A DNA stretch of 64,000 nt from Scenedesmus sp. PABB004 (lineage: Eukaryota), in assembly GCA_014905635.1 (NCBI GenBank), contig JABVCE010000005.1, positions 248,001-312,000 on the forward strand, given 5' to 3'. Below, one piece after another: positions 12,667 through 64,000 of this stretch. Under the pieces are notes generated by a model. It saw only the letters and a list, made by a program, of their open reading frames with translations. It made no database searches and was not told where the DNA came from. A program made the translations under genes and the position numbers. Position 1 is the first letter of the stretch; each line of letters begins with the position of its first letter.

Positions 12667-15600
12667 TCAGCAGTCGTCGTCGCCGGGCTCGTCGTCCGCG
12701 TGCGCCGACGCGACCACGGCCTGCTGGCGGTACATCTCCGCCACCTGCTGCGCCGTCGTCGCGTCCTCGGGCGACTTGTCATCCCGCACGCGCACGAGGC
12801 GCGGAAAGCTGCGCGTGCGCGGAGGCGGGCGCGCCGTGCTGGGCCGGGCACGCTGGGCGGGGGGAGCGGCGGCGGCGGCGGCGGCCGAGGCCGGGGCGCG
12901 CGCACCGGATGCTGATGCCCTTGCCCGGCTCCACCAGGCCCAGGGCCGCCTGGTGCAGCGGCGAGATGGACAGGTCTGCTGCCTTGACCTCCCACACCGC
13001 CGCCGGCGCAAACCACACGTCCGGCGCGCCGCTCTCGCCAAACTGCGCGGGCGCGCGCGGCGCGTCGTGGCGTGGAGCGCCGCAGGGCGCCGCGCACGGC
13101 GCGCGCATCCCGCTGGCCGCGCCGCGCCGCGCCGGCTGCGCTGCCGCCGCGCCTGGTAGTAGGGGCGCGGCGCGGGTATGATCGACGGGCGCAGCGCCTC
13201 GGCGAGCGCGGTGAGCTGCTCCTCGCTGAAGCCGGTGCCGAGCTTGCTGATGGTCTGGTAGGTCTCACGCTCCTCGTCGTACACCGCCAGCAGGTAGGCG
13301 CCAAACACGCCTGCGTGCCAAGGGTTGCGGGCGCCGCGCACGGGGGCCGCTCGGGTCGGCTTGTGCGCGGCGCGGCCCCGCGCGGCGCAGCACCGCGCGC
13401 GCGCGCCCGGGCGGCGCTGCGCGCGCGCAGGGGAGGCGACGAGCGCGCAGCAGCGCGCAGCACGACACGCACCCGCGCGCTTGCCGCGGCCGTAGAAGGC
13501 GCCGATGGGCACGACGTCAAACGTGTCGCCCACGCCCGCGAGGTAGTCCTTCTTGAGCTTGAGCCAGTGCGCGCTGCGCTTGGACGGCTCATACGCGTCG
13601 GCGAGCGTCTTGACGATCAGCCCCTCCGTCGCGGCGTCGACCGCCTCGTTCAGGAAGGCCTGCCGGCGGCGGCGGCGGGCGGGCGGCGGGGCGGCGGCGG
13701 AGGGCGGGAGGGAGGCGCGGCAGGGCGGCGGGACGGGCTGAGCGGGCGAGAGGCGGGCGAGGATCGGCGCGGCGGCGCGGCTGCGGGCGCGGGCGGGCGC
13801 GGGCGCCGGCAGCGGACCTCGAGCTCCTCCACGTCGGTGCTGGTCTTGGCCGTCGCGAGCGTGAGCTGGCCCGGCACCTCGACGAGCCCCGCCGACAGCG
13901 CGTCGCGCCGCGCGGTGAGGGGCTCGTGCAGCAGGCTGGACCCGTTGAGGTAGAGGCAGTCAAAGGCGTAGACGCACACCTGGCGGGGTTTAGGGTTTGA
14001 GGGTGCAGCGCCGGCGGCGAGTGAGGCGCGGCGTCGGAGCGGCGCGTGGCGCGCGGCGGGTGGGGCGCGGCGCGCGGCCGCCGGTCGAAGCGGCGGCAGC
14101 GGGTGCGCTGCGCACCTGGACCTTGACGTCGGCGAGCGCGACCTCCTTGCGCGCGCGCGTGGACAGCACCTGCCGGCGCGGGCGCGGACGCGAGCGCGGC
14201 CGCGGCGCGTGAGAAAGCACACACGCACGCACACACACACACACACACGCACACACACACGCACACACAGAGTCCCGCAAGCACACACAGGCGGGGCTCA
14301 GCAGCCCCTCCTCGCCTGGAAGGGCAGTATCTTCTGCTTCTCCGGGTCCCACGCCACCGCCTCGCCGTCGATGACGATCGACTCGGTGCCCGGCGCCAGC
14401 CAGCCGGGCAGCCTGGCCGCGGGCAGCGCGCGCACGGACGCGTGGGCGGCGCGCGCGCCGGGCGGCAGTGCTCGCGCGGCGCCGCGCGCGGCGGCCCGCT
14501 TGAAAAGCCCGCGTCAACCCTAAACCCTCAGCCCTAACCCCTGCTCACCGCGCGAGGATGTCTGGGTAGCGCCGCGTCATGTCCTCGCTGTTGCGGCTGT
14601 AGATGTGCACCCGCGCGCCGCCGTCGAGCACGTGGATCTGTGGCGCGACACGCAGCGCCGGCGGCGGCGGCGGCGGAGTCGGCGGCGCGTGGGTGCGCAC
14701 GCGCGCAGGCGCGGGTGCGGCTGCGACCGAGGGCCGCGCCGCCCCCGCGCCGAGCGCCGCGCCGCGTCCGAGCGCCGCGCCGCCTCTGACCGCCCCTGGT
14801 CGCCCGTGCCGCCGCACCTGCACGCGCTCGCCGTCATACTTGTACTCGCACGTGAACTCGGTGCCGCTGAACTTTTCGAGCACCTCGCCCACGCCCGTGG
14901 TCGGCTTGGCGAGCATCGGGTGCACCGGCACGCCCGGCGTGAACGCGACGCGCGCCGGCAGCTCCGACAGCGGGTGGTCCAGCAGCGCGGGCACGAGCTG
15001 CGGCGCGTGACGCGGCGGCGGCGGCGGTGGCGGGAGCGGGCGGCCTGAGCCGCGCGGCGCGGCAGCCCGGCGGGGGCGGCAGCGGCAGCAGGGACAGCGG
15101 CAGCGAGCAGAGCAGCAGGCACACAGCGACAGCGGGCGGAGCGGCAGCAGGCACACGGCGACAGCGGGCGGAGCAGCAGGCACACGGCGACAGCGAGCGG
15201 AGCAGCAGGCACACAGCAGCAGGCACAGCGGCAGACGGCACACAGCAGCAGCGGGCTGAGCAGCAGCGCGGCGCGCGCACCACGTCGTACGAGGGGCACT
15301 CGCTGTAGGCCGCCTTGACCGCCTGCGCCGCGGCCTCGAGCCGCTCCGCGAGCAGCCCGTCCCTGCGCGCCGCCGGCGGGCGGCGCGGGCGGGCGCCGTC
15401 AGCGGCCGCCGCAGGCATGAGCCGCCGCGCGCAGCGCACGCGCAGCACGCGCGCACTTGTCCGAGGCGCCCTCCTTGTGCAGCAGCACCGAGTGCGCGAT
15501 CGCGACCAGCACGCTCTGCTCCGCCAGCCCGATGCGCAGCTTGGCCTGCCGGCGGCGGCGGGCGCGGGTGCGACAGCACAGCGGCGTGGGCCGGCCGCGC

Positions 15601-17623
15601 CGCCGCAGGCTGCGCGCGTGGCACCCCGCGCCGCGCCCTCGCGCGCCGCTGCGGCGGCGGGGCTCGCCTGCAGGCTGCGGATGATGTAGCCCGGCTCGAC
15701 GCCCTTGCTCGCGACCAGGAGCTTGCTGATCAGCCCCACCTTGCGCGCCTGGCTCGCCTGCCCCGACTCCCTGCGGCGCGCGCGCACGGAGCGCGCCGCC
15801 GCGTCCGCACGCACCGCACGTCCGCACGCGCCCGCCGGCGCACGCGTTCCGCGCGCCCGCCCGCCCGCGTGCTCGCGCTCGCGACCGCGCTCGCCGCGCG
15901 CTCGCTCACTTGGCGATGTCGCGGAAGGCTTTGAGCACCGACCCGATCGTGAGCGGCGGCTGCGGGAACATCGTGCGCTGCGCGCCGCGCGCCGCCGCCG
16001 CGACGCTGCCGAGGTCGCCGCTCTCCTCGTAGTCCTTCTTGATGCCGCCCTCCTTCTTGCCCGTCGCACCCGCGAGCGCCTGCGGGGCAGCCGTTTGGCG
16101 GCGAGGCCGGCGCACGGCTCGCGCGAGCGGGCGCCGCGCCGCGCCGCCGGTGTCTGCCCGCGTGTCGCGCGTGCTGCTGTTGCGCGGCCGTGCCTTGATC
16201 AGCAGCGCATCGCCGACGCCGAGCTCCACGCCCGTGTGCGCCGGCGCGACGCGGTTGGTGCACAGGTAGATCGCAGGCAGCAGGTCGCCCGGCGTGCTGG
16301 CCAGGATCGCGCGGAACGCGCCCGTGAGCAGGCCCGTGCACTCGAGGCGCTTCGACGTGCTCGCGATCGCCTGAGTGCGGGCGCGGCGGCGCGTGCGGCG
16401 GCGGGCGCGGCGTCGGGCGCGCGCGCGCGAGGGCGCCGCGGGCGCAGGCGCCGCCGCGGGGTGAGGCGGCGGAGACCTCGGTCGGCCACGCCCGGGGCCT
16501 AGGCCCGGACAGCGCACCTCGAACGTGTCAGTCAGGAAGGCGTACGGCACGGGCTTGCCGGCCGGCCACGTGATGCTGCCCGCGACGTCGACCGCCAGCG
16601 CCGCCTGCGCCGCCGCGAGCGCGCCCGTGCCGACGCCCTCCATCGCGCTGCCCTTGGTGCTCTTCTTGCCGGCCGGCTTGGCCCGCGCCTTGGCCTTGGC
16701 CTTGGAGGGGCTCGCCGCCGCGGCCGCGGCTGCGGCCGCGGCCGCCTCGCCCGCGCCGCCGTCGCTGTCGGCGTCGCTGTCGGCGTCGCCGTCGCTGCCC
16801 GCGTCGGCACCGTCGCCGTCGCTCGCCTTGCTGCCGCTCGCCTTGCTGCCGCGCTTCCGCCGCTTGGCGGGCGAGGCGGCGGCCGCGGCCTCGCCGCCCC
16901 CTTCCTGCGCCTGCTTCTGCGGCTCCTGCTGCGGCTGCGCCTGCTGCTGCTGCGCCTGCTCCGGCTCGGCGCCGCGCTGCGCGCCGGCGGCAGCGGGCTG
17001 CTTGGCTGGCGACTTGGCCGCCGGCTGCTTGCCCTTGCCCTTGCCGTTGCCCCCGGCCTTGGCGCGCGCGCCGCCAAACATCGACTTGAACGCTGCCGAC
17101 GCCTCCTGGCTGCTCAGCTTGGCCGGCGACTTGGCCGCCGCCGCCGCGCCGCCGCCCGCCCCGTCGGCCGCCGCGCCCTCCGCGGGCGCCGCGTCCTCCA
17201 GCACCTCATCCTCCAGCTCCTGCGCGCAGCGAGGCGCGGCGGCGCTCGGGTGCGCGCCGCCCGGCGCGCGCCGGCCGCGCACGCAGCAGCAGCGCACGCC
17301 GCGCCTGCTGCTCGTCCTCCGCCGGCGGCGCCGCCGCAGCGCCGTCGGCGTCGCAGGCCCGTTTGAGGCGCTTCAGCCGCCCGCCGTCGCCATCACCCTT
17401 CTGCGGCGCGGCGGCGGCGGCGGCGGGCCGCAGCACAGCGCGTCGGCGCCGCTGCTCGCGTCCCCGCGCCGCCGCCGCGGGCGCGGGAGACGGCGCGCCG
17501 CACCGCCCGCTTGGCGGGACCCTCATCAAGGTTCTCTTTGGCCGCCGGCGCGGCCTTGGCGGGCTTGGGCGCGGCGGGGGCAGGCTTGGCGCCGAAGAAG
17601 GAGCCGATGTCGCGCTGCTTCAT
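12667..17623 (-). CDS. LIG1: DNA ligase I, many exons
   Basis: N-terminal PIP box [10 protein letters not shown]. Also [23 protein letters not shown], active site [18 protein letters not shown]-like [53 protein letters not shown] and [11 protein letters not shown]. Confidence 0.97.
13985..14004. repeat. Short degenerate telomere-like (TTTAGGG) tract in a LIG1 intron
   Basis: GGGGTTTAGGGTTTGAGGGT on the + strand. Confidence 0.6.
14218..14290. repeat. (CA)n microsatellite in a LIG1 intron
   Basis: Interrupted CA/CGCA run. Confidence 0.9.
14516..14541. repeat. Short degenerate telomere-like (CCCTAAA) tract in a LIG1 intron
   Basis: AACCCTAAACCCTCAGCCCTAACCCC on the + strand. Confidence 0.65.
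15078..15268. repeat. Degenerate minisatellite with a unit of about 27-30 bp in a LIG1 intron
   Basis: Repeated units resembling GAGCAGCAGGCACACGGCGACAGCGGGCG. Confidence 0.85.
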
Positions 17624-17725
17624 GGCGCGAGCATGGGACGGCGTGCCGGGATCGCACGGCGCGCCTGTGGGTGGCGCGGCGGGCTGCGCTGCCGTCGGGA
17701 CGACGCGCGGGCGGCAGCAGCAGGT

Positions 17726-19814: not shown

Positions 19815-21425
19815 TCACTCCGACAGGCTGCTGACGCTGCCCTCGTCGCCGCTGCCGAGGGGGACGTCCGGGTCGGTCCGCCCCCAGCCCGCGTGCGCCT
19901 CGAGCCACTGGTCCTGCTCGTACAGCATGTGCAGCACGCTCTCGCGCGCGCGATAGCCGTGACCCTGCCGAGAGCGGCGCGCGGCACACGCGGTGAGCGG
20001 CGCGCGGCGCACGCGCGGCGGCGGAGGCGCGCTCGGCAGCCGAGCGGCGCGGAGGCGGCCACGGCGCACGCGCGCGCGCGTGCGCGCCGGCGGGGGCGGC
20101 GGCAGCCCCCCTCGGCGCCCCCGGCGCCGCGCGCACCTCGTGCGGCAGCAGCACGAGCCGCGCCGGCGCGCCGTGGCCCTTGAGCGCCGCGAAGAAGCGC
20201 TCCGACTGCAGCGGGAAGGTGCCCGTGTTATTGTCCTCCTGCGCGCGCGGCGGGCGGGGGCGCAGCGCGGCGCGCGCGCGCGCGTGTGCGGCGGCGGCGC
20301 GAGCACGGCGGCGGGCCTGGCGCCGCGCGCGCGCAGGAGGGCACAGGAGGAGCACGGCGCGCGGCGCCGCCGCACCTCGCCGTGGATGAGCAGCAGGGGC
20401 TTTTTGATCTTGTCAGCCATCCTGCGCGGCGGGCCCGGGGGGGGGGCCAGCGCGCAGGCGCGTCAGCGGCGGGCAGCGCGGAGGCAGAGCGGAGTCAGGT
20501 CTGGCAGCGGCAGCACAGCCGCCGTCGCACGCGCGCCGCAGCTGTCGGCGCCGCGCCGCCGCTGCGTGGCCGCCGCCCCATGTGATCAGCGCTCACATGA
20601 AGGGTGACATCTTGGCATAGGTCTCGGGCGCCTGCCACAGCGTGCGCTCCTGGCGTGGCGGCGTGTGTGCGTGTCGGCGCGGGTGACGGCGGGGGCGGCG
20701 GGCGTGCGGCGCGTTTGTGCGAGAGCGCGTTTGTGCCACAGCGTGCGCGGGCGCGCGTGGGCGTGCGCGGGCGCGCGCAGCGCGCTGGCGCACCTCGGAC
20801 TGGAAGCCAAACGGCGTGAGCGTGCGGTTGTACGCGCCGGACCGCGCGATGCCGGCGGCAAAGAGGTCCGGGCAGTGCGCAAGGAGGTTGGCCGCCATGA
20901 AGGCACTGGGGCATGTTTGAGGGCGGAGGGCGAAGGAATGTGAGGCTGGGTGGGCATGTGAGCCTGGGTGGGCTGGGCGGCGCGGCGCGCTACGCGCGTC
21001 CCGGCGGCGTGCGCGCAGCCGCGCGGCCGCGTTGCCGCACCCGTACGAGTGGCCGCCGATCGAGACACGCGCCGGGTCGGTCACGCCGCGGCGCACAAGC
21101 TCCTGCGCGCGGCCGCGGCGGCGGCAAGAAGCGTCACGCAGCTGCGCAGGCCGGCCCCGAGCCGTCTCACGCCGTCCCGCGCCGCGCCGCGTCGCGCGCC
21201 TTGACCGCCGCCTCTGCGCTCGCGGAGAGCTGCTGCACGTAGGTGTCGTTCGGCTCCTCGCTGCCCTCCGCGACGATGGGGAAGCCGGGGCCGTCCAACA
21301 CGGCGTAATTGCGCGTCAGCCAGAGCGTGGGGCTCATGCTGCCAATGCCGCTGAACTGGTACGGCGACCGCCGCATCTGGCCCGCCGCCTCCTGCGCGGT
21401 GGGGCGCGCGGCGCGGCGCGGGCGT

Positions 21426-21501: not shown

Positions 21502-21504
21502 CGC

Positions 21505-21559: not shown

Positions 21560-24500
21560 GCCGGGACGGACGGGCGAGCAGGGCCGGCGGGGCAGGGCGG
21601 GGCAGTCCCGGGCGGCCGGCGGCCGGCGGGCGGCGCGCACCTTGGACTTGTACTCGCGCGGGTAGGCCCACAGAATCGTCGGCAGCGGGCCGTCGCGCGC
21701 GGCGTCGTAGCCGGGCGGCAGGTAGAGCGTGGCGGTGAGGTCCACGCCGTCGGGGCGGGCGTAGCGCAGGACCTCCTTCTGCATGTCACGCAGCTGCGCG
21801 GCGACACGCGGGCAGGCGTGGGGACGGCGCGGCGGCGAGCGTCCACCGCGGGCCCGCTCGGGCCCCGCAGACGCGGCGCAACAAAACGCGGCGCAGGGGC
21901 GGCGCGGTGCAGGCGCGCCTGGGGGTAGGGGTGAGGGAAGTCGGTGATGCGCCGCTCGCTGCGCGTCCACGCCGGCGCGTCGCCGTCGCCGCCGCCGGCA
22001 GCGGCCGCGGCGAAGGAGAGCAGGTACGTCTGCGGCGGCTCACTCACACTCTCGCGGCTCAACAGCACCTGCAGCCCGTCCAGCGTGATGGGCGCGTCCT
22101 GCGCTCGCGGCAGGAGGGCGGCGCGGCGGCGCGGCGGCGGCGTCGGGGGCGGCGCGCGGGCCGGCCGGGCTGGCGCCGCGGTGGTCGCGCGGTCGGCGCC
22201 GCTCACGTGGTCTGCGTCACTCATGATGGTGCCCACGCTCTCCAGGTGCGGCGGCGCGCTCTGCCAGAGGCGCGTCGTCTGCCGGCTGTCCAGGTCGAGC
22301 AGGTCCAGGAAGGGCCGGTTGCCCTCGGGGCTCGCGCCCGTGCCGGAGAGCAGCAGCCTGCGGGCGCCGTCAACCTTGGCGAGGACGTACGTCCCCGCCG
22401 CCGTGCGGCGCGTGAGCGGCGCGCCAGGGTCGGAGTACACGTCCTCGAAGGACCTGCGTGGGAGAGAGAGGGCGAGTGTGAGTGAGAGTGAGAGTGCGAG
22501 CGAGAGCGGATGCGTGTGTGATTATGTGTGAGGCGGCAGAGGCGGCGCGGGCGAAGCCCCCCGCGCGCGGCGCCGCACCGGTCAAACAGCACGGCCTTGG
22601 GCTCGCCGCGGCGGTCAGGCGCAAACGTCCACACCACGCTCCGCCGCGTCTTCCACCAGCTCTCGTACAGCAGCGCGAGGTCGCCGTCGCACCACGACAC
22701 GCCGCCGCAGCGCAGGTCGGTGGCCGCGAGGACCTCGGGCGCCGGCGGCGCCGCGCCGGCGGCGGCGGCCGCCGCCGCCGCGGCCGCGTCGAGCGTGTAC
22801 ACGACGTCCCGCGGCGAGACAGAGACGCTGGGGTCGCCGCCGTCCTGGGCGAGGGGGGGGGGGGGGCAGCGGCGTCAGCGGCGTCAGCGGCGTCGGCGGG
22901 GCTGTGCAGCGGCGGCGCGGCGCACCTGCGCCTCAATCCAGCTGAGCTCGGCGGGCTTGTCGTCGCGCCAGCTCACTGCGCGCGGGCCTGGGGCGGGGCA
23001 GGCGGCGGGCGGCCGCCGCGTGGCCGCGCGCACCGGCGCGGTGCGACGCGCGGCGGCGAGCCCCGGCGCGGTGCGGGCGCCAAGGCGGCGCCGCGCACCC
23101 GTGCGGCAGCTGTTGAAATCGATCGGAATGTTGGTCGCGAGCGGCAGCGACGCCAGCTCGCGCACGAGCGCGCCGGCGCGGTCCCACAGCTGCAGCGTGA
23201 CCGGGAACCGCCCCGCAGGGAGCTCGTAGCTGAAAGGCCGGCTGAGCCAGCAAGCAAGCAGGAACTGGCCGTCAGGGCTGGGCGCGACCCTGCGCGACGG
23301 CGGCGTCAGCCGTGAGCGGCGCGCCAGCGCTGGCGGCGGCGGCGGCGGCGGCGCTCACTCGGTGTACATGCGCGGCGGCGCGAGGCGCGTGCCCTCGCTG
23401 CCCGCCTGCGTGACGTCGAGCAGCAGCAGCTCGCTGGTGCCGTAGTACTCAAACAGCTCGCCGTCGTGGTCGTCGCGCAGCAGGTCAGTGTAGGTGCGGC
23501 TCTGGCTGCGCACGCCCGCGCTGTTGTCCTGGATGCGCGGCCCGCCGGGCACGGGCGGCCGCGACGGCGGCGGGCCCTGCACGCGCGCGCGCGGGGCGGC
23601 AGCGGCGCCGCGCGTTGGTGGCGCCGCGCCGCGCCGTGCCGCCGCGCCGCGCCCCGGTGCCGCGCCGCGCCGCGCCGCGCCGCACGTGGTCCTGCGGCAC
23701 CACGGCGGCCACGATGTGCGTGTCGTCGACCCAGGCGTAGCTGTCAAACACCGTGTTGAGCCGCCGCCCGCCCAGCAGCGGCCGCGCCGCGCCGGTCGCG
23801 ACGTCGGCGAGCCAGAGCTGCAGCGGGCCCCGCGGCGGGTCGCCGGGCCCGCCGGGCGAGCGCGTGGTGAAGGAGACGAAGCGGCCGTCGGGCGACCAGG
23901 ACACCAGGTTGAGCCACGCGCCCTCCGGATAGCCGGTGATGCTCCGCGTCGCAGACGGCGGCGCCGGGACGAGCGTGTCGGCGGGCACGATGCAGAGCCC
24001 CGTGTAGTAGCTCATGCGCGAGCGGCTGAACTGCTCCGCGTCGATGCGCACGCCTGCGGCGGCGATGCGGCGCCGGCGACGGGTCGGCGCGAGGCGCACG
24101 CGACGCGCGGCGGGCCGCAGCGGCGGCGGGGGGCCGGGAGCGCACCCGCGAGCTTGAGCTCGGGGCGGCTGATCTCGAAAATGGGCGGCAGCGACGGCGG
24201 CCGTGACAGCTGCAGAATCTGCGCGCGCCGCGGCGGCAGCGGCGGCGGCGACATGCGGCGTGGGCCCGTGCCGCGCTGCCCGTCGCGCGGGGTGGGTCGG
24301 CCCGCGCTGGCGGCGGCCGTCGGCGGCCGCTGGCGGCGGCGCACCAGGGAGCGGTCGGGCGAGAAGGTCAAGCCGGGCTGCGGCGGCGCGTCGACAATGT
24401 CCAGGATCTCCTTTGGCGGCTCGCGGTAGCCGCCGCGCGCCGCCTTGCCGCCCGCGCCGTCGCCGCCCCGCCGGCAGCGGCGGCAGCGGGCGCCGCGCTG

Positions 24501-25350: not shown

Positions 25351-27137
25351 ATGGCGGACGCCCAGGAGCAGCAGGGTGCGCGGCCAGGATGCGCGGGCTC
25401 GACTGGACCCGGCGCAGCAGCGGGCAGGCCCGCCGCCTCACCGCGCCGCGACGCCGCTGCCGCGCGCCGCTGCTGCGGCGCCGCGCCAGACGCCAAGCGC
25501 GCCAAGACGGAGCCCGGCGAGCCGCCCGCCGACCAGGGCGTGCCGGAGCCCATGGCGCTGGACGCCGCGCCGCAGCGCGACGCGCCGCCCCACGCGCCGG
25601 CGGCGGCCGGCGGCGAGCCGTCCATGCGGGCGCTCATGGCGCAGTACTACCGTGAGCGGCGGCGCCTCGCCGGGGGCGCCGGGGGCGGTGGGCGGGCGCC
25701 GCGTTGTGGCGCGCAGCAGCGGGAGCGGCCGGGCGCCGAGGCGCCGCGCCCCCTGCCCCTGCGCCGCGCAGGGCGGCTCTTCCCGGTGCAGCACATGTTC
25801 CGCTGGCTCTGCTACGGCAACGGTGCGCGCCGCCACCGCGCCGCCCGCGCGCCACCCGCGCAGCCGCCGCCGCGGCGCTCGCGCGCACGCGCCGCGCTGC
25901 CTCGCCGGCGTGCAGACGGCAGCCACGGCGCGGCGGACGCGAGCTTTGCGGGTCGGCGTGAGATCTGCTACACGCTCGAGGGCGACATCTTCTGCCGCTA
26001 CCAGAGCTTCAAGGCGCGCAGGGGCTTGCAGGGCTGCCCGCGCGGGAGGCTTTATCGCGCAGCTCTCGAAGAGCTTCAAGGGCGCGGGGGCGCACCCGCG
26101 GCCACCGCCGGGCCGCGGCGGCGAGACCGCGCGCACGCCCCGCGCGCGCGCGCCCGCGCCCGCGCCGCAGAGCTGGTCTGACCTCGCGGCCGAGCTCGCG
26201 CGCAAGGTGCCGACCAAGATTGACATCGGCCCCGTCTACACCCACGACCCGCGGCAGCGCGCCAAGTACGCCAAGGGTGAGTGAAGCGCCCCGCTCGCGC
26301 GCGCCGCCCGCGCCGGGTGCCGTCGGCCGCGCACGCGCGCGCCCGGCGGCCCCTCCAGCGGCCTCGCGCGCGCGCCGCGCCCGCGACTGCGACCGCGACC
26401 GACCCGCGCCCGCCGTGACCGCGGCATGCCGCTGTTCGCGCAGACTTCAAGCCCGTGCAGCGCGAGCTGGTCATCGACATCGACCTCACCGACTACGACG
26501 GCCTGCGCACGTGCGGCAGCGGCGGCCACATCTGCGCCCGCTGCTGGCCCTTCATTGCGGTCGCCATGCAGGCGCGGCGGCGCGGCGGCGCGCGCGGCGG
26601 CGCGCGGCGTGCGCGGCGCAGTGGCGTTGAGGCGCGAGGGCGTGCCAGGCCCGGCCGCCCAGGCGCCCGCGCCGCCGCCGCTGGCCGCCGGGGGGGCGCG
26701 TGCCAGGTGCTGGACGTGGCGCTGCGGGCCGACTTTGGCTTCCGGCACATCCTCTGGGTCTACTCTGGCCGCCGCGGCGTGCACGCCTGGGTCTCCGACG
26801 AGGGGTGCGCGCGCCGCGCGCCGCGCCGCGCGGCGCCAAGCTGGAGGGGGCCAGGCCGGCACGCGCGCCGCCCGCGCCCCCGCGCCCGGCGCCTCCGCTC
26901 GCCCCTGCGCCCCGCGCCGCGCCGCGCACGCCGCACGCGGCCGTCGCCGCCGCCGCGGCGCAGCGCGCGGCGGCTCGCGGACGACGTGCGCGGCGCGGTG
27001 GTCACCTACCTGTCGGTCATCCGCGGCACCGAGGCCGGCCTGGCCAAGCTTGGCTACGGCCTGGTCAAGCACCCCGCGCTCGAGCGCGCGGAGGGCATGC
27101 TGCGCCGCGCGTGGCGCGAGGTGCGCGGCGCCGCAGC

Positions 27138-27168
<31 letters not shown>

Positions 27169-28424
27169 CGCGACGCCTGCGAGCCACGCCCCACCGGCCC
27201 CGCCGCCGCCGCCGCGGTCGCCGCGCAGCACCTGCTGCCCGCGCAGGAGCTGCTGGAGACGCCCGAGGCGTGGGGCCCGCTGCTGCGGTACATCCCGGAC
27301 GAAGACCTCACGCGCGACCTCGCCGCGCGCTGGGCCGCGGGCGGGCAGGTGCGCGCACCGGCCCGGCAGGGGCGCCGGCGGCGCCGGGCGGGCGGAGGGC
27401 GTGCGCGGCCGCGGCGGGCGGGCGGCGCGCCGAGTGGCGCGCGCGCGTGCCGCCGCGCCGCAGGGCCTCATGCCCGACGGCAAGCCCAGCCGGCGGCGCA
27501 GCGCCGCCGCGGGGGCGGCCAAGGAGGAGGACGGCGCCGGCGACGCGTGCTGCCTGAGCGTGCGGCGCTGGAACGAGCTCGAGCGCGCGGTCAAGGACAA
27601 GGTGCGCGCGCATCACGCGCGCCCCGGCCCCCGCGCTGCGCCCCCGCCACGCGCACACCCAGCGGCGCAGGCGCGGCCCCACGCGCGCCGCCCGCCCCTG
27701 CCGCGCCGCGCCGCCCGCCGCGCGCCGCGCCGCGGCGCCCGCCAGGCGCGCTCGCTGGGCGGCGTGCGCGGCCGCGCGCTGGAGAAGGGCCTGGGGGACA
27801 TTCTCTTTGCCTACTCATACCCCCGGCTGGACGTGGAGGTGACCAAGAAGATGAACCACCTGCTCAAGGCGCGGCGGGGCGCGGGGTTGAGGCGCGGCGC
27901 GGCGCGGCGCGGGGTCCAGGGCGGCCGCGCTGCTGCACGGCGCGGCGCGCTGGGAACGCGGCGCGGCGCCGCGCCGACCGCGCGCGCCGCCGCGGGCGCA
28001 GGCGCCGTTCTGCGTGCACCCCAAGACGGGCAAGGTCTGCGTGCCGATCGACCCCGCCGCGGCGTGGGAGTTTGACCCCGACGCCGTGCCCACGGTGCGG
28101 GAGCTCGTCGCGGCGCTCGACACGGCCGGCCCCGCGGCGCAGCAGGTGCGGCGGCGCGGCAGCGGGCGCCGCCGCGCGCGCGGGGGCGTTGCGCCGCGCT
28201 GCCGCACGCGCGCCGCCGACGCCTGCGCGGCGGCGCTCGCGCGCGCGCAGGCGCCCGGCGCGGGCGAGGGCTGGCGCGGCACGGCGCTGGAGCCGTACGT
28301 GGAGGCCTTTGCGTCGCGCTTCCTGTCGCCCCTCGCGGCCGCCAACCGCGCCGCCCTGAACGACAAGGCCAAGGCCGCCGCCGCGGAGGGCCGCGCCGCG
28401 CGCGCGGACGTCGTCTCGTGGTGA
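25351..28424 (+). CDS. PRIM1: DNA primase small (catalytic) subunit, many exons
   Basis: YYRRLFP, REICYTLEGDIFCRYQSF, KIDIGPVY, RELVIDIDLTDYD, WVYSGRRGVHAWVSD and [34 protein letters not shown]. Confidence 0.97.
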
Positions 28425-29648: not shown

Positions 29649-32547
29649 TCACAGCTCGGTCCAGCCCTCCTCCTCTCCGCCGCCGCCGCCGCCGGGCTGC
29701 GCGTCGTCGTCGCCGTCGCCGGAGTCGCTGCCGAGCGCGAGCGCGGCCGCGGCGGCGTGCAGCTCGGCGAGGCCCGTCAGCTCCTCCAGCAGCGCCGGGC
29801 GCTCCAGCACGCCGCGCACGAAGGCCCAGCCCTGCTCCCGGAAGGCCGCCACGACGGCGGGCGAGCACGCGGTGCACTGGCTGAACGCGCTGCCCACCAT
29901 GCAGGCCTGGCTGAAGCCGGTGAGCTGCCCCCGCACCATGTGCGGCACGGGGCCCAGCGCGCCGCCGCCGGCGTCGGCGCCGCCCGCGACGCCGTCGGCG
30001 CCCGGCGCGGGCGCGGCGCCGCGCAGCGGGTGCTGCAGCGCCGCGGCCATGAGCTCCACCGCCAGCGCACCCGCCACCGGCGCGAGCCCCGGCCGCGCGA
30101 CGGTGCACTGCTGGTCCAGCGTGCGGTCGCGCGTCGAGTTGAGCGGCGCGACGACGTCACTGCAAAAGTAGCAGCCCAGGCGCGGCAGGCGCGCGGCGGC
30201 GCCGCCGCTGCTGCTGGCGCCGCAGCCGGCGCCGCTGCTGCTGCCGCCGCCGCCGCCTGCGCCGGCGGGGTCGAGGCCGTGGCGCATGACGAGGAAACCG
30301 TCAAAGCCCAGCGCCGCGGTGATGGCGAGCCGCCCCGCCGCGGCCGCGAGCAGCGTGGGCAGCCAGCGCGACTCGCGCGTGTCAGTCAGCAGGAAGACCA
30401 CGTCCGCGCCGGCCACCAGCGCAGACAGCTGCTCAAACGCCTGCGCGGCGCGGCGCGGGCGGGCGGCGGCGGCGGCGCGGGGCTCGGCGCGGGCGCGTGC
30501 GAGAGCGGGGGCGGCGGGCGCGCCCCGCGCGCTGCGCCGCGCCGCGCCGCGCCGCGCCTCTCGCGTCTGCGCCTCCTGCGCCTCGCCCGCCGGCGCGTGG
30601 CCGGGCATGGGGATGTTGAGGCACACGCCGGCGGCGGCGGCCGAGGGGAAGATGCCCAGCAGCGCCGCGGCGGCGGCCTCGGCCTTGGGCCGCCCGCCGG
30701 CGAGGCAGTCGTCGTGCGTGAAGAGGCTCTGCCGCACCGGGTTGGAGTAGGAGACGCGGCCGCCGTCGACGAGCGTGATGCGCCGCACGCCCCACGCCTG
30801 CAGCGTGCGCGCGACGGCGCAGCCGAGCGTGCCCGCGCCGAGCAGCAGGCAGCGCGTGCTCGCGAGGCCGGCGACGTCGAGCGCGGGCGCGGCGCGCCAG
30901 CGCATGAGGCGGAGGTTCAGGTCCACCGCCTGCTCCGCGAGCTGCACGGGGCTCAGCAGCGGGCTCACGTCCACGACCCGCGGCAGCAGCCGCCCGTTGG
31001 CGTCCGCCTCCCAGCCCACCGCCTGCGGCGCCGCGCCGCCGGGCTGCAGCCAGGCCGCGGGCAGCTCGGGCAGCAGCACCTGCGGAGTGGAGTGGAGCGG
31101 GGCGGCGCAGCGCGGCGCGGTGTGGGCGGCGGCCGCCGGCAGCCCGCGCGCGCGCCACTGGGCCGGGCACCGCCCCGCCCCGCCGCGCCGCGCGCGCACC
31201 TGCAGCACGAAGCTGCGCTCGGCCGAGGCACGGCCCGCCGCGCTGTCGCGCAGGCAGAGCACGCGCAGGCGGCGCGCGCGCCAGCGCGCCGCCGCGAGCA
31301 GCAGCGCGTTGCGCAGCGGCCAGCCCGGCGTGAGCGGGAGGTGGCAGGGGTCAAACATCACCAGCAGCGTCTCCTCGCCGCTGCCGCCCTCCGCCTCCGC
31401 GCCGCCACCGCCGCCGCCGCCGAGCTGCTGCCACGCGGCCAGGCCGGCGGTCGCGACCACGCGCTGCGTCCCGGCGCACACGCGCATCAGGCAGAACAGC
31501 GCGGGCGCGGCCTCCGGGGCGCCGCCGCCGCCGCCGGCGCCGGCCCGCCAGGCGTCCGCCGCGGCGCACAGCGCCTGCTGCAGCTGCGGCGCGGGAAACG
31601 CCGCCGCGAGCGGCTCCGCGCGCTCCTGCTGGAACGGCGCCGGCGGCTTGAGCGCGGGGAACGCAAACCTGGGGGGAGGCGGGCAGGGCGGGCGACCGCG
31701 CGGCGGCGCGTCGGCACAGGGACGCGGCCGCGCGCCGCGCGCGCTGGCGCACGCCGCGCCGCGCCGCGGACGCGCCAGTAGTGAAACTCAAAGCGCTTGA
31801 GGTCGCCAAACGCGAGCAGCAGGAAGGCAGACAGGCGCCCCGGCTCCGCCTCGGCGGCGCCGCTGAGCACGTCGGCCCACACGCGCGCGCCGGCGGCCGC
31901 CAGCGCGGCGGGCTTGTCCGCGCGGCGCAGCCCCTCGAGCGTGTTGCTCAGCTGCAGCTGCCCCGGCACCGCGTGGCCCTGCGCGCGGTGTGGCGCGCGG
32001 CAGCGCGTCGTGGGCGCGCGGCAGCGCGTCGCGGGCGCGCGGCCGGGCGCGGCGGGCGCGGGCGCGGGCCGCAGCGCCCCCTGCGCTGCGCGCGCACCTG
32101 CTGGCCGGCGCCGGCTGCGCCCGCGAACGAGCTGGCGGCCACCTGCAGCAGGCTGCCCACGGCCTCATGGCGCGAGGCGGTGAGGTAGCCTGCGGCGGCG
32201 TGGGCGGCGCGTTCAAAGCTGGCAGCGACGGCGCCGGACGCCGCCGCTGCCAGCGCCCCTGCGCGCGCGGCGCTGCTCGGCTGCCTCCACCGCCGCTTCC
32301 CGCTGCGTCCCAGCTGCCCCGCCGTCCGCTCCGGCCGGGCCAGCCACCTGTGAGCTCCACGGGCGCCTCGGCGAGCTTGTACTCGTCGAGCTTTTTGCTG
32401 GCCAGCTCCGACCAGAACGACACGTCCACGCAGCTCTGCGGCGCGGGCGCCGCGCTCGAGACCCGCCGCAGCACGCGGGGCCGCGCTGCGCGGGCACGCC
32501 CGGACCTGGAGCGGGCAGAACTTGAGCACCGACAGCGGCGCCGCCAT
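29649..32547 (-). CDS. ATG7: Ubiquitin-like modifier-activating (E1-like) enzyme ATG7, multi-exon
   Basis: LKFCPLQSCVDVSFWSELASKKLDEYKL, PGWPLRNAL, VGWE, AVDLNLRLMRWR, LLGAGTLGC, VSYSNPVRQSL, FLLTDTRESRWLPT, LGCYFCSDVVAP and the catalytic RTLDQQCTVARPG. Confidence 0.97.
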
Positions 32548-35346: not shown

Positions 35347-35386
<40 letters not shown>

Positions 35387-35714
35387 CCGCCAACGCTGCC
35401 GGCGCTCAGGCGCGCCAGCGAGCTGCTGCGGCTGGCGCCCGCAAAGCAGCTCACGCCCAGGCCGGGCTGCTGGAACTGCTGCTGCTGGAACTGCTGGTGC
35501 TGCTGGTGCTGGTGCTGGTGCTGCAGCATGGGCGTGGAGCTCGCGGGCGTGTCGAGCCGCATCCAGCCGCTGGACCCCAGCCCGCCATTGGCGGGGGCGT
35601 CGCTGCTGCGGGCGCGCAGGTCTGCGCCGAGCCGCACCTCCGGGCCGCCAGTCGCCGCTGCCGACATGCTGTGCGTACCGCGCAGGTGGCGCAGCTGCTC
35701 CGACTGCGCCTCCC

Positions 35715-35797
<83 letters not shown>

Positions 35798-35828
35798 GCC
35801 TGCAACTGCTGCTGCTGCTGTGCCTGCA

Positions 35829-35868
<40 letters not shown>

Positions 35869-37693: not shown

Positions 37694-37725
<32 letters not shown>

Positions 37726-38850: not shown

Positions 38851-39961
38851 TGAGGGCGGCGGCGCGCCGATCCATGCGCGCGCGAAGCGAATGCTTGATG
38901 CCGCGCATAATATTCGCGAGGCGTGTTGCTGCTTCAACAAGCGCGAGGGGCCTCCGCGCTCTCTGGATGGGCGCGCCGGGAGAGGGACGTCGCCGCCGCG
39001 CGCCGCTGCCGCGCCCGCCGGCCGCCGCCGACCCCCGCTGCGCGCTGCCCGCTGGGCGGCCCGCAGCCTCAGCACGCCGCCGCTGGCCCCTATGCTGGGT
39101 ATTACACACGCCGCGCCCGGCGCCCTCCCCTGCCCGCGGTAGCCCCTGCTGCGCCACGGCGCCCGCGGTCAACCCCTGCTGTGCGCTGCGCGCGCACTTG
39201 AGCGACGCCCACCCCCCTGGTGCCCGCCCCGCCTCCCCTCACGTGTGATGAGCGTGCGCCCGCCGCCGCGCGCGCGTGCAACATCCTGCACAGCCTGCCC
39301 GGCGCCCCAGCGCCGCCTGCCGCCGCCTCCTGCGCGTGCCGCCGCGTGCCGACAATCTACATCTAATGTGCAGCAGCCACAAGCCATCTAACACAGCCTA
39401 TGCACGCCGAGGATGAATGAAATTGAGTATGCCGGTGCCGCGTGCGTGCGTGCGTGGTTGGGGCGATCAAATCGGTGCCCGGAAGCGCGGCGGCGTTCGG
39501 CTGGGCACCGCGCACGGTGCCTCGCGCGCTCGCGCGTGATCACAACCGCCGCGGCCGCGGCCGCCCGCGCCGCGGGCGGCCGCGCCGACAAAAACTGCCG
39601 CCTTCGAGGGCGGCCGTGCGCAGCCCGACGGGCGCGCGCCAACGAAAGAGTCTGTGCTCGCTGTGCGCCGGCGGCGGCACAGCAATGCGCGGGGGGCCGC
39701 CCTGCCCCCCAACCCCCCCTCGCGCATGAAAAGGGCACCCGCGATCAAATGGCCCCGCGCCGCCGCGGCGATCAACGCCCGCAGGCAGCCCGGGGCGCGC
39801 GCGCCCACCGCCGCTCCGGCCCACCGGCCGGTGGGCCGGCAACTCTGCGCAGCAACAAGAGCTCCACAGACGAGTCCCAGACACAGCGCCAACAAACCCC
39901 CGCGCGCGGCGGCCGCGGCTGGCCGCCTGCCGCGCCGAGCTGAGGCGCGCCCGAGCGCGCC

Positions 39962-45000: not shown

Positions 45001-45977
45001 TGATCGCCAACCCGCGCCGCCCGCTGGCGGGCGCGCGCGGCGCGGCGGCGCCCGGCGCGCGGCCGGGCGCCGCGCTGTGCCCCGCCGGCCACGGCGGCGA
45101 GCGGCGGCAGCTGCTGGAGCGCGTCGCGCGCGCGAGCGAGCCGGACGCAATGATGGAGAAGGCACGCGGCGCGCCGCTGCGCGCGGGGACGGCCGCCGCA
45201 GCGGGCCCGGAAGGGGGATGAGCTGCCGGCTGGTGCGCGCGCAGGTGCACGCCTGCCTCGCGCAGCTTGGCTTTGCTCCCGCGGCCGGCCTGCCGCCTGC
45301 CGACGCTGCAGCGCTGGAGCTGGTGCGAGCGTACGTGCCGCTGCGGCAGGGCGAGGTGTGGCAGGTGCGCGCGCGGCAGCCGCCGTGCCCGGGCCCCGGC
45401 GGCGAGACGCGGGCGCGTGCCGCGCCCGACCCACGCCGCCCGCCCCGGGGCGCGCAGGACATTGCGGCCGAGTTTGAGGCGACGGGCCTCACGCCGACGG
45501 AGGAGGACAGCGCGCGGCTGACGTCGGGCGTCGAGCGCGCGCGGGTCGTGGCGGCCGAGGTGCGGCTGGCGCAGGAGCGCCTGCTCTCCGCCGCGGCGGC
45601 GGAGCAGCGCGCGGCGGAGCACGCAGGCTACGCGGCGATGCTCGCTCAGGCGGCGACCGACGCCAAGGCCAAGGTGCGGTGCCGGCCGTGCGCGGGCGCC
45701 GCCGCGGCGGCGGCCGCGGGCGCGCGCTGACGCGCGCCGCGCCGCGCCCGCGCCGTGCTGCCAGACCTGGGAGCGGGACGGCGCCAAGCTCACGATGCGC
45801 GAGCGCCTCGCCGCCAAGGCGCGCAAGGAGGACATGCTGCACCGCAGCCTCGGCGACAGCCTCGCGAGCGCAGGCGCCAGCGGCGGCGGCGGCTGCGACG
45901 CCTGCTTTGCCATCCCGGCTGGCGCCGTCGCTGCGGAGGCTGGCGCGGGCGGCGGCGTCGACGCGGGCGCGCCGTGA
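41742..45977 (+). CDS. CFAP69: Cilia- and flagella-associated protein 69 (ARM-repeat), multi-exon
   Basis: Ordered motifs recalled from the family: KEKRNDALAVLQLL, DHELKLLLW, WSPEQLLTL, LDCLWRGVV...GMDTLLGLL, VLSVLADL, LLLAVWREQD, KVHACLAQLGF and YVPLRQGEVWQDIAAEF..GLTPTEED. Confidence 0.8.
42033..42085. repeat. (GCC)n microsatellite in the first CFAP69 intron
   Basis: Uninterrupted GCC run between the CTGAC branch-like motif and the CAG acceptor. Confidence 0.9.
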
Positions 45978-50400: not shown

Positions 50401-50699
50401 CGCGCTCCAGCTGCGGGCAGCGGCGCGGGGCGGCAGTGAGCGAGCGGCGGCGGCGGCAGCGGCGGCAGCAGCGGCGGCGGCAGCGGCGGCGGCACCGCGG
50501 CCCCGCACGGGGCCGCGGCGGCGTGTGCTGGCGTGGTCGGTCGGCCGCTGGCAGCTTCAACGCATCGGCGCAAGGAGCAGGGCGCTTGCTGCTTGCTGCA
50601 GCGCGGGGGCAGCTCGTTTGCCGAGTCACTCGCCTGGCCCTTCTCCGTCGCCGCGCGCGCGAGCTCCAGCAGCTTAGAGAGCCCTGGATCCTCCGCCAT
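47447..50699 (-). CDS. PRMT7/PRMT9-like protein arginine methyltransferase with a TPR-like N-terminus and two methyltransferase modules
   Basis: YHLSMLNDAARTRAY, VLDVGCGTGLLSLMA, double-E loop VHEIFGTDPLGE and GHWQQ. A degenerate copy of the module lies upstream. Confidence 0.85.
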
Positions 50700-55660: not shown

Positions 55661-57256
55661 TCAGTCCTGGAACACCACGGTGCGCCCCGTGGGCGTGACC
55701 AGCACGCGGTCGTTCACGTGCCAGCGCACCGCGCGCGCGAGCACGAGCCGCTCCAGGTCGCGCCCCTTGCGCACCATGTCCTGCGGCCGGCGGCGCGCGC
55801 GGCGCGCGCGTGAGCCGCTCGCCGCCGGCTGCCCACGCGCCGCGCCGGCCGCCCGCCTGCCCGCCGCGCTGGCCGCGCCGCGCCGCTGCCGCCGCCGCCG
55901 CCGCGCCGCGCGCCGCGCCGCGCGCCGCGCCTGCACGCTGTCGCGGTGGGTGATGCGCGTGATGTCCTGCTCGATGATCGGCCCCGCGTCGAGCTCGCTC
56001 GTCGCGTAGTGCGCGGTCGCGCCGATGATCTTGACGCCGCGCTCGTGCGCGCGGTGGTAGGGCTTGGCGCCCTCAAACGCGGGCAGGAAGGAGTGGTGGA
56101 TGTTGATCGTGCGCCGCCAGTTGGCCTCGCAGAACTCGGGCGAGAAGATCTGCATGTACCTGCGCGCAGGTGAGCCCGGGGACGCGGGCGGGTGAGCGCG
56201 CGGGCCCGCGTGAGCTAGGGCGGGCCGGCGCGCGGCGCCCGCGCCGCCGCGCGGCGCCGCCCGCGCGCGCCGCGCGCCTGGCCAGCACGATGAGGTCCAC
56301 GTCCGCCTCGTCCAGCACCTGCGCGCCGCGTGCGGGCGGCACGAGTTGCCTGAGCACTGCCCGGGCGCTGCCCCAGCCCGCGCGGCGCCGATGGCCCCGC
56401 CGCGCGCTGCCGCGCCGCGCACCCGCTGGATCGCCGCCTCCTGCGTGCGCTTCGCGGCCGCGCGGTCGGGGCCGGCCGGGACGCCGAGGTGCTCAAAGTC
56501 GACGCCAAACATGCCCGCGACGTGGGAGAGGTCCGGGTGGTTGCTGATGACGACCGGGACGTCGGCGTGCAGCTCGCCGCTGCGCGTGCGGATGAGCAGG
56601 TCGAAGAGGCAGTGGTCCATCTTGGACACGAGCACCGCGACGCGCTTGCGCTTGGGGCGGTACGACACCTGCGCTCGGCGGCGGGCGCGGCGGCGGCGGC
56701 GGCGGCGGCGGCGGCGTGAGCCCGGCCCGGCTGCGCTGTTGCCGCCGCGCTGCTCCCGCCGGCGCCGCTGCTGCTGCCCGCCGCCGCCGCGGCGGCGGCG
56801 CGCCTTCCAGTCCATCTCGTAGCGGCGCGCGAGGTCTGCGACGGCGGTCTCGAGCACTCCGAGGTTGCCGCGGCCCACGCTGATGTCGGCGTAGTCAAAG
56901 TGTATGCGCTGGAAGAAGCGGCTCGGGCTCAGCGTCTCGTCGCTGAACTGGTCCGACTGCAGGATGTTGCAGTTGAAGCCGAAGAGCAGCTGCGCGAGCG
57001 CCGCAACGACGCCCTTGGCGTCGGGGCACTGCACGAGCAGCACGCCCGTGCTGTCGCCCGCGGCGCCGCCCTCCTCCGCGCTCGACGTCGCGCCGCTGCC
57101 CGGCGCCGGTGCCTTCTGCGGCGCCGCCACGCGGCGCACGACCAGGCGCCGACCCCGGCAGGGCGGCTGCGGCGCCGCGAGCGGCCTGCTGCCGGCTGCT
57201 GCCGCATGCCGCCCGCCAAGGCCCAGCGCCGCGCCGGGCCGGCCCGCGATCGCCAT
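55661..57256 (-). CDS. purU: Formyltetrahydrofolate deformylase, organelle-targeted, multi-exon
   Basis: ACT domain CPDAKGVVA; VAVLVSKMDHCLFDLL; VISNH; LIVLARYMQI; INIHHSFLPAFEGAKPYHRAHERGVKIIGATAHY; LDAGPIIEQD; GRDLERLVLARAV. Confidence 0.97.
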   Translation of the reverse strand: MAIAGRPGAALGLGGRHAAAAGSRPLAAPQPPCRGRRLVVRRVAAPQKAPAPGSGATSSAEEGGAAGDSTGVLLVQCPDAKGVVAALAQLLFGFNCNILQSDQFSDETLSPSRFFQRIHFDYADISVGRGNLGVLETAVADLARRYEMDWKARRRRGGGGQQQRRRREQRGGNSAAGPGSRRRRRRRRRRARRRAQVSYRPKRKRVAVLVSKMDHCLFDLLIRTRSGELHADVPVVISNHPDLSHVAGMFGVDFEHLGVPAGPDRAAAKRTQEAAIQRVRGAAARGGAIGAARAGAAPGQCSGNSCRPHAARRCWTRRTWTSSCWPGARRARAAPRGGAGAARRPALAHAGPRAHPPASPGSPARRYMQIFSPEFCEANWRRTINIHHSFLPAFEGAKPYHRAHERGVKIIGATAHYATSELDAGPIIEQDITRITHRDSVQARRAARRAARRRRRQRRGAASAAGRRAAGAARGQPAASGSRARRARRRPQDMVRKGRDLERLVLARAVRWHVNDRVLVTPTGRTVVFQD

Positions 57257-61393: not shown

Positions 61394-61428
61394 TCAGGCC
61401 AGCTCAGGCCAGCTCAGGCCAGCTCAGG
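61394..61428. repeat. 10-bp tandem repeat (CTCAGGCCAG), about 3.5 copies, at the SNF2 gene stop
   Basis: CTCAGGCCAGCTCAGGCCAGCTCAGGCCAGCTCAG. Confidence 0.9.
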
Positions 61429-63051
61429 TGAGGTCGACGGCGTCCGCCGCGGCCTCGGCCGCCGCGAGCGCGGCCTTGACCGCGCGATACTCCTCGTACA
61501 TGCCCGCCCAGCGCGCGCGCCGCGCGGCCCCAAACTCGCCGCCCGCCGCGCGCGCGGCCTCCTCCGCGTGCAGCGCCTTTTTGAGCACGTGCCGCCGCGT
61601 GCGCAGCTCGTCCAGGCTCGGCGTGCGGCCGTCCAGCGTTGCGACGCCGAGCGCCGCGAGCGCCGAGCACGCGCCAGAGCCGCCGCCGCCGCCGCCCTGG
61701 CCCTGGCCGCTGCCGCGCGGCTGCGCGCGCTGCGGCTGCGGCTGCTGTGGCTGCTGCGGCTGCTGCTGCAGCCCGCCGTGCTGCCGCGGCGCCGACGCTG
61801 GCAGCGGCGGCGGGGGCCACGTTGCCCGCGGCTGCTGCTGCTGCTTATCGGCCGACTCGGCGCCGCCGTTGGTGATGTCGATCAGCGCCGCCGGCTGCCG
61901 CGCGCCGCCCGCCCCGGCCGCGGGCGCTGGTGGGGCTGCTCCTCCTCCGCCGCCGCCGGTGCGCGCGGCTTCGTGCCCCGGCGCCAGCCGCGCCAGCTCC
62001 GCCCGCGCCTTGTCCAGCGCGTGCTGCAGCTCCTGCTGCCGCGCTCGCAACTGCGGGCGCGGGCGTGGGCGCGGCACGGGGGCGCGCGTGCGTGCGCGGG
62101 GCGGGGCGCGCCGCGGCCGGCCGCGCGCACGCGCGCTCGCGGCGCCCCGCGTCGCGCGCACCTTGCTGCCGCCGTCGGGCAGGCGCGGCCCGAGCTGGTC
62201 GAGGTCTGTCGACACGCGCAGCAGCTGCGCCTCGCACAGCTTGACGCGGCTCACGAGCTGCTCCACCTGCGCCGCCTGCTGCTGCTGCTGCGCCTGCGCC
62301 TGCTGCTGCTCCGCCGCGCCGCCGCGCACGGTGATGTTGAGCGACGACAGCAGGCTGCTGAGCGCGCCCGCCGAGGGTGGCGGCGGCGCCGCGGCGCCGG
62401 CGGCGACGGGCACCGAGCCGCGCGCGCGCGCGCCGCCGCCGCGGGCGCCCGGCGGCGGCGCCGCGCCGGGCGGCGGCGCGCGCGGCACGCGCGTGAGGTC
62501 GAGCTCGGCTGCCTCGGGGTCGCCGTGGCTGAACAGCAGCCCGTGCTCGCTCGTGCCGGCGCAGAGCGGCAGGCCCTCCAGCCACGCGACGTGCGCGACG
62601 AGGTCGGGGTCGGGCGGCGCCCGCCGGCGCGGCGCGCGGGCGCGCCGTGCGTCTGGCGCAGCAGCTGCTGCGTCTCGCTCGCCGCCAGCGCGGCGGGGTC
62701 CCACTTGAAGAGCTCGTGCAGCTCCTGGTGCGTGAAGTACCTGCGCGGCAGCCGTGGGGTCATCGCGTGCGGCGCGGGCGGGGTCGCGTGCGGCGCGGGC
62801 GGGGGCGCGCGCGCGCGCGTGCAGCCGCCGCGCGCGCGCCCCGCCGCCGCCGCCGCGGTCCCCGGGCGCCGTGGGGACCCGCCACCCGCCGCCGCACCGC
62901 AGCTGCACGCCCTCCTCGGTGCCCGCGCGCGAGAGGCCGGCCTTGAAGACCTGCTTGCGGTAGATCTTCTCCTCCACCGTGCCGCACGTGACGAGGCGGT
63001 ACACCACAACGTCGCGCGCCTGTACCGCCGCACCACCGGGTGTGAGTGAGT

Positions 63052-63082
<31 letters not shown>

Positions 63083-64000
63083 CGGCAGCGGGCGGGGGCA
63101 GGCAGCGGGCGGGGCGGAGGCGGGATGAGCCGCGTCGGGGAGGGGCGCGGGGTGCAGGGCGCGGGGCGCAGCGCAGCGCCCTGGCGGCGGGCGCGGGACC
63201 CGCGGCGGCGGCGGCGCCGCGCCTGTCCGATGCGGTACGCGCGGTCGACGCTCTGGTTGTCGCTCGCGGGGTTCCAGCTCGGGTCCACGATCACCACACG
63301 GTCGGCCGCAGTCAGCGTCAGGCCCAGGCCCCCACCTGCGCGCGCGAGCGTCGGGGCCGGGGTGGCGGCGCGCGCCTGGTGCGCCTGGTGCGCCTGGCCG
63401 CCGCCCACAGCACCAGCAGCCCCAGCAGCCCCCCCAGGGCCGCGCCTGCGTGGTGAGCAGGAAGACGGGCAGCTCCCGCCCCGCCGCCTGGAAGCGCGCG
63501 ACCTCGGCCTGCCGCGCCTCGGCCGACGCGAGCCCGCCGTCGATGCGGCAGAAGGCCCACCCAGCGGACGCCACGATCGACTGCGGCGGGCGCGCGCCGG
63601 TCAGCCAGCAGGGAGACGGCAAGCGCCAGCGGGCGAAGGCGCGTCACTCGTGCCGAGCGCGGTGCCTCCTGCCTCCTGCCTGCTGCCTCCTGCCTCCTCC
63701 CTCCCGCCTCCCGCCTCGCTTCCCGCCGCCCGCCTCCCGCACTCCCGCCGCTGCGGGCGCCGCCACACCACCGCCGCCGCACCTGCAGAATGTCCAGCAT
63801 GACGCGGCTCTGGCTGAACACGAGCGTGCGGTGCCCGCCCGCCACGAGCACCTCCAGCAGCTGCCCCACAAACAGCGCCTTGCACGACGCGGCGCCGCCG
63901 CGCGCGCCCTGCAGCAGGCGCGACTCGAGGCCCTCCGCCGCCGCCCAGGACACAAACTCGTCGCTGAAGCCGCCCGCGTCGAGCTCCTCCGCGAGCGTCG
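61424..64000 (-). CDS. SNF2-family ATPase, CHR24/ERCC6L(PICH)-like, 3' part only
   Basis: [92 protein letters not shown] and [12 protein letters not shown]. Confidence 0.92.
63663..63740. repeat. Degenerate 7-bp repeat (TGCCTCC/CGCCTCC), intronic
   Basis: Repeated GCCTCCT/GCCTCCC units. Confidence 0.75.

Follow-up and report, generated by a model that had tools for sequence, protein, structure and literature searches.

Abundant GC-AG introns behind an exonic AG in a GC-rich window of the Scenedesmus sp. PABB004 genome

Introduction

A 64-kilobase (kb) stretch of the Scenedesmus sp. PABB004 genome (contig JABVCE010000005.1, positions 248,001 to 312,000; the whole stretch is called the window here and all coordinates refer to it) raises the question of how many of its introns begin with GC rather than GT, and why such donors are tolerated. 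A sequence-only reading of the window had listed 18 GC donors, described as strictly preceded by an exonic AG, and had placed their number at 16 or more among roughly 100 introns. Two explanations were offered there, namely an altered recognition by U1 and U6, or a GC pressure that erodes the T at donor position +2 wherever the exonic AG compensates.

The PABB004 genome is described as comprising 39.8 Mb with 78.5% GC and 7,092 genes (PMC12571836). The G+C content of the window is ~80% overall and 77-82% across 4-kb bins, with no N bases, and its six reading frames are largely open because stop codons are rare. GC dinucleotides (28,232) are 6.5 times commoner than GT dinucleotides (4,353). At each of the 18 listed positions the letters are ag|GC and then G or A. 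On the two strands of the window, however, AGGCG occurs 437 times and AGGCGCG 84 times. Because the motif is so common by chance and proves little alone, each site was tested by spliced alignment.

Results

Placement and reality of the GC-AG junctions

Homologs were fetched for PRIM1, LIG1, purU and cGEP, and exon pieces from ungapped tblastn searches were chained along each gene. Ungapped pieces were used because gapped tblastn read through in-frame introns. For every gap between pieces, each frame-consistent pair of a GT or GC donor and an AG acceptor was scored against the homolog, and the candidates were ranked on alignment score alone, not on donor context. Several of the orthologs derive from contigs of ~1.3-3.5 kb, which are taken to be assembled transcripts. 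Two deposited Scenedesmus sp. PABB004 proteins, P0001 (Prim1) and P0275, match the window with 100% identity over all exons, and these deposited coding-sequence models already employ all five GC-AG junctions of PRIM1 and cGEP.

Colinearity with orthologs or with sequences of solved structures confirmed 13 of the 18 listed sites; two more are probable, and SNF2 63445, CFAP69 44622 and 'PRMT' 50633 were not upheld (Table 1). In PRIM1, the rival GT pair is absent at 26014 and scores 80 against 108 for the GC pair at 26572, and 105 against 130 at 27869. At LIG1 15667 only two homologs were scored, as the other chains skipped a small exon; the join recreates the residues of homolog P0007 across the junction.

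Table 1 GC-AG introns and listed GC donors of the window.
Gene	Coordinates	Strand	Donor	Status	Evidence
PRIM1	26014..26170	+	26014	confirmed	157 nucleotides (nt), no GT inside; two orthologs and deposited model
PRIM1	26572..26706	+	26572	confirmed	135 nt; two orthologs and deposited model
PRIM1	27869..28001	+	27869	confirmed	133 nt; two orthologs and deposited model
LIG1	16080..16193	-	16193 (GCACGG)	confirmed	GC best in 5/5 homologs evaluating the junction
LIG1	15546..15667	-	15667 (GCGAGC)	confirmed	GC best in 2/2 homologs
LIG1	14170..14315	-	14315	confirmed	6/6 homologs, GT candidate in none
LIG1	13043..13152	-	13152	confirmed	GC best in 4/5 homologs
cGEP (peptidase S9)	21794..21918	-	21918	confirmed	10/10 homologs and deposited model
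cGEP (peptidase S9)	21103..21199	-	21199	confirmed	12/12 homologs and deposited model
purU	56669..56803	-	56803	confirmed	no GT inside; 12/12 homologs
purU	56160..56277	-	56277	confirmed	7/7 homologs that kept the 15-residue exon
purU	55781..55930	-	55930	confirmed	12/12 homologs
SNF2/ERCC6-like	63020..63222	-	63222	confirmed	exon ends at residues 953|954 of human ERCC6 (chain 7oo3_b), no indel
ATG7	30441..30557	-	30557, 30572 or 30581	probable	in-frame
ATG7	31669..31775	-	31775 (tg|GCGCGT)	probable	missed by the sequence-only reading; residues 151|152 of the Arabidopsis ATG7 N-terminal domain (chain 3vx8_D)
CFAP69-like	45162..45241	+	45162	probable	80 nt; no GT ahead of the in-frame stop
SNF2	63337..63445	-	63445	not upheld	in the sequence as given, the following exon is one base off the reading frame
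CFAP69-like	44622..44746	+	44622	not upheld, ambiguous	consensus GT 4 nt downstream (44626) rivals the donor
'PRMT'	50600..50633	-	50633	not upheld	34 bases up to the donor marked, without acceptor; GT 4 nt downstream

Several observations argue that these junctions were not misplaced, with a nearby GT in actual use. The lengths of nine of the 13 confirmed GC-AG introns are not divisible by three, and these introns must be removed because their retention would wreck the conserved downstream frame. GT is wholly absent inside two of the 13; the sequence-only reading had correctly stated this for the PRIM1 intron 26014..26170, and it holds likewise for purU 56803..56669. Frame-consistent GT alternatives, where present, cost indels of 2-26 residues in conserved blocks. 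All but one of them lack the G at +5 that is found in 31/31 verified GT donors, and the exception would create an intron of 36 nt. As for an erroneous C at +2, random T-to-C errors on GT donors would be expected to fall after an AG in ~39% of cases, so that 13/13 has a chance of ~5e-6. As judged from the sequence comparisons, the GC-AG introns of the window are confirmed as real, and the original observation stands more strongly than it was first stated.

Frequency of GC-AG introns

Among 44 homology-verified introns, 13 (30%) are GC-AG and 31 are GT-AG, with an AG acceptor, usually CAG, in all 44. The GC-AG introns are distributed as 3/10 in PRIM1, 4/13 in LIG1, 3/4 in purU, 2/16 in cGEP and 1/1 in SNF2. 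Addition of five provisional junctions placed from Pfam or Protein Data Bank (PDB) coordinates, four of them GT (MsrB and the aldo-keto reductase) and one GC (ATG7), gives 14/49. The sequence-only reading was thus right that GC-AG introns are unusually frequent; in the genes accessible to checking, its estimate fell short. Its rough count of ~100 introns in the window is plausible, given 44 in five genes.

Left out of the 44 were PRIM1 28146..28250, with scores of 17-34 against self-scores of 153-161; a LIG1 intron lying between ~15468 and 15352, at which homolog P0042 scores GC 49 and GT 43; SNF2 63445; and pseudo-introns of 30-51 nt that arose where variable regions broke exon pieces apart (for example 22005..21955, 56960..56928, 23776..23741, 22763..22734 and 13606..13574).

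Anatomy of the donors

The two donor classes share most of their consensus, as the sequence-only reading had noticed. In the 13 GC donors, +3 is G in 12, +4 is C in 11 and A in two, and +5 is G in all. In the 31 GT donors, +3 is G in 30, +4 is C in 24 and A in seven, and +5 is again invariably G. Position +6 is C in six and G in seven of the GC donors, versus C in 24/31 GT donors.

The exon side separates the classes. An exonic AG at -2/-1 precedes 13/13 GC donors but 12/31 GT donors (Fisher p = 1.2e-4), and each of the 13 GC donors has A or C at -3. Counted the other way, 13 of the 25 AG-preceded donors are GC, compared with none of the 19 others, or 1/20 when the probable ATG7 donor 31775 is included. 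Across the whole window, 859 of 28,232 GC dinucleotides (3.0%) follow an AG. The AG context is an independent check on the junctions because these were selected by alignment score and not by context. The strictness claimed for the exonic AG therefore holds for every verified GC donor, with one probable exception, the TG-preceded ATG7 donor.

On the coding strands of four genes, the motif AG|GCG(C/A)G is a verified donor at 11/17 sites and GTG(C/A)G at 30/77 sites. Intron lengths are similar (median 133 nt for GC and 136 nt for GT introns), and the verified introns are mostly 80-94% GC (range 70-94%). Lengths divisible by three are found in 4/13 GC introns and 16/31 GT introns; the latter is an excess in its own right, as about one-third would be expected. 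Stop-free introns of such length may be tolerated if retained.

Minor (U12-type) introns were considered as a class and ruled out, as 13/13 donors read GC(G/A)(C/A)G, not an ATATCC- or GTATCC-type motif.

Probable and rejected sites

From ATG7 30600 to the acceptor at 30441 there is no GT, and the three ag|GC sites in this interval (30581, 30572 and 30557) are indistinguishable. In comparison with yeast Atg7, the intron at 30557 shows up as an insertion of 46 residues.

At SNF2 63445 the donor side fits, but GT-AG or GC-AG joins come into frame only by adding at least five residues. SNF2 exon A, searched by itself against the PDB, had no match. The acceptor is followed by a run of five G (63331-63340, minus strand), and a sixth would yield a clean GC-AG join with zero indels; the run may contain a homopolymer indel of the assembly, at 63336.

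Gene content and annotation of the window

A Pfam scan of all 525 stop-to-stop open reading frames of at least 60 residues in the window identified LIG1, peptidase S9 (cGEP), ATG7, an aldo-keto reductase, a mitochondrial carrier, MsrB (SelR), purU and an SNF2 helicase on the minus strand, and PRIM1, a Kelch protein, a weak CFAP69 match and a fasciclin protein on the plus strand. The same scan of 525 frames gave no support for the gene that the sequence-only reading had named 'PRMT'. An Rfam scan of the 64-kb window returned no matches, hence no small nuclear RNA genes. On the minus strand, 32890-39168 is one open frame of 2,093 codons with an L7Ae domain and a zf-met zinc finger near the C-terminal end.

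Two features of the LIG1 region were also seen. A CA/TG microsatellite of 26 dinucleotide copies (14218-14269) lies inside the intron 14170..14315 and supplies 25 GT dinucleotides there. Over its C-terminal third, the LIG1 homolog P0016 aligns with out-of-frame translations of 12720-13550 on the minus strand; the P0016 gene model, which belongs to a different GC-rich organism, may itself carry a frameshift.

In the deposited models P0001 and P0275, several in-frame GT-AG introns are translated as part of the protein (25652-25771 and 27121-27228, and on the minus strand 24219-24344 and 22988-23098), at positions where orthologs are without inserted residues. P0001 has 862 amino acids, compared with 481-501 in orthologs, and the model also continues into downstream exons up to 29390.

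Relatives of cGEP were additionally sought in a metagenome scan that kept 80 loci, seven of which were inspected for composition. Exon structure was seen for two of them, L079 and L016, each a single frame without introns. The extent of most other matches, ~2.3-2.8 kb for ~820 residues, suggests that these too are intronless.

Discussion

Origin of the GC donors

The GC-AG introns of the window are probably ordinary introns of the major (U2-type) spliceosome, born of GC-biased substitution where an exonic AG compensates. Strong GC-biased substitution would repeatedly turn the +2 T of GTGCG donors into C. With the donor paired to a canonical U1 5' end, the A at -2 and the G at -1 would supply base pairs that replace the lost U-A pair at +2, and the change would presumably survive only after an exonic AG. 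The expected outcome would be the one at hand, in which roughly half of the AG-preceded donors, and hardly any of the rest, are GC today. A change in U1 or U6 would not be required. GC-biased substitution at a +2 position that is weakly constrained after an AG is the simplest cause, because G+C reaches 78.5% in the genome and mostly 80-94% in the introns. Of the two explanations first offered, GC pressure is the better one and fits the distribution of the donors over AG and other contexts.

U2-type GC-AG introns of other eukaryotes have a stronger flanking-exon consensus, and the GC donors of the window share this trait through their AG at -2/-1. The introns of the PABB004 window have the same termini as canonical U2-type GC-AG introns of animals and plants, and the rest of the donor likewise follows the GT consensus. 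They differ from those introns, which make up ~1% of all introns, in a frequency that is ~20-30 times higher.

Such a frequency would also be expected if an altered U1 5' end or U6 ACAGAGA box accepted C at +2 and recognised GC donors like GT donors. This alternative is unlikely. It draws some support from the GC-AG share, ~20-30 times the reported mean of 1.3% over 61 species (Iwata and Gotoh 2011, PMC3033335), and from the difference between the classes at +6. Full acceptance of C at +2, however, would make an exonic AG needless, yet the AG is invariable before GC donors and present before fewer than half of the GT donors. GT donors are still the majority and have the same consensus. Moreover, in Aureococcus and Micromonas pusilla, whose GC-AG shares are similar or higher, the putative 5' end of U1 is reported to be identical to the 11-nucleotide consensus (PMC3033335).

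It is slightly less likely still that the GC donors are kept as deliberately weak sites, which tune expression through intron retention, and are not neutral by-products of GC pressure. A study of Emiliania huxleyi proposes that GC donors may go together with frequent intron retention (PMC4028052), and the GC-rich introns of the window seldom contain stops. Against this, the window gives no sign of regulation: its GC introns lie in housekeeping genes beside GT introns of like median length, and lengths divisible by three are not enriched among them in comparison with the GT introns.

An artefact, in the form of misplaced junctions with a nearby GT in use, of in-frame low-complexity insertions or of assembly errors at +2, is most improbable: GC is so much commoner than GT that one lies by chance near any position, four of the 13 GC introns are multiples of three, an assembly indel is possible at 63336 and three of the 18 listed sites were not upheld, but the frame, alignment and donor-context evidence above and the five junctions of the deposited models all speak for genuine introns.

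Several points weigh against the preferred account of ordinary U2-type introns shaped by GC-biased substitution. The sample is one 64-kb window with five genes, and the GC-AG share swings from 2/16 to 3/4 by gene. Every junction rests on protein colinearity, and at LIG1 13152 one homolog, P0042, marginally favours a GT pair (81 versus 77 for GC). The probable ATG7 donor at 31775, with TG instead of AG before it, is the sole exception seen to the AG rule, so the rule is not absolute. Finally, the direction of change, from GT to GC, and the role of U1 are ones that we infer.

A stronger version of the account, which we stop just short of favouring, is that, in a genome whose 78.5% GC ranks among the highest listed for nuclear genomes, the GC donors form a rule-bound second donor class, in which +2 may be nearly neutral once the A at -2 and the G at -1 pair with U1.

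Comparison with other GC-rich genomes

Abundant GC-AG introns in PABB004 are a further case of a known phenomenon of GC-rich algae. Shares of 39.6% in Aureococcus, 22.2% in Micromonas pusilla and 7.7% in Chlorella sp. are reported and tied to G+C (PMC3033335), and shares of 14-17% are given for pelagophytes (bioRxiv 10.1101/2024.10.30.620910). Like Aureococcus anophagefferens, Micromonas pusilla CCMP1545 and Chlorella sp., PABB004 combines high G+C with a GC-AG share in the range of 8-40%, an AG acceptor and GT-like intron lengths. Unlike those algae, it is a chlorophycean (Sphaeropleales), and its G+C is 78.5% versus 65.9-69.5% (PMC3033335). The shares differ in kind, as that of PABB004 comes from 44 hand-verified introns in one window and those of PMC3033335 from genome-wide annotation. 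A strict exonic AG rule, as found for PABB004, was not encountered in the parts of PMC3033335 drawn on here. The same source gives an ATATCC-type motif for U12-type introns, which also have non-GT donors, versus GCG(C/A)G in PABB004.

For Emiliania huxleyi, a GC-AG share of 56% among 241 mapped junctions is reported, and nine GC junctions were verified by reverse transcription polymerase chain reaction (RT-PCR; Feldmesser et al. 2014, PMC4028052). In that alga, as in PABB004, GC is the main non-GT donor, it is ascribed to the GC content of the genome, and gene finders mispredict the introns. GC donors are the majority there and were checked by RT-PCR, whereas in PABB004 they are a minority (30%) placed by protein colinearity.

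The literature search, in the portions of text that it covered, found no description of the GC-AG trait in PABB004, though such junctions are present in its deposited annotation. A full-text search that combined GC-AG with Scenedesmus returned unrelated papers only.

Significance

The GC-AG introns of PABB004 do not reveal a new splicing mechanism, and their main practical value lies in the annotation of this genome. Gene finders restricted to GT donors would mis-model about one-third of its introns; the deposited models already retain in-frame introns, and the genome lists just 7,092 genes. The clean rule AG|GCG(C/A)G can be built into annotation. With PABB004, a chlorophycean of extreme G+C joins the few lineages known for a high GC-AG share. 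If the AG-dependent neutrality of +2 holds genome-wide, PABB004 would be a natural saturation experiment on 5' splice-site recognition, and the selection coefficient on U at +2, set against GC-biased conversion, could be read from a comparison with its 57%-GC relatives.

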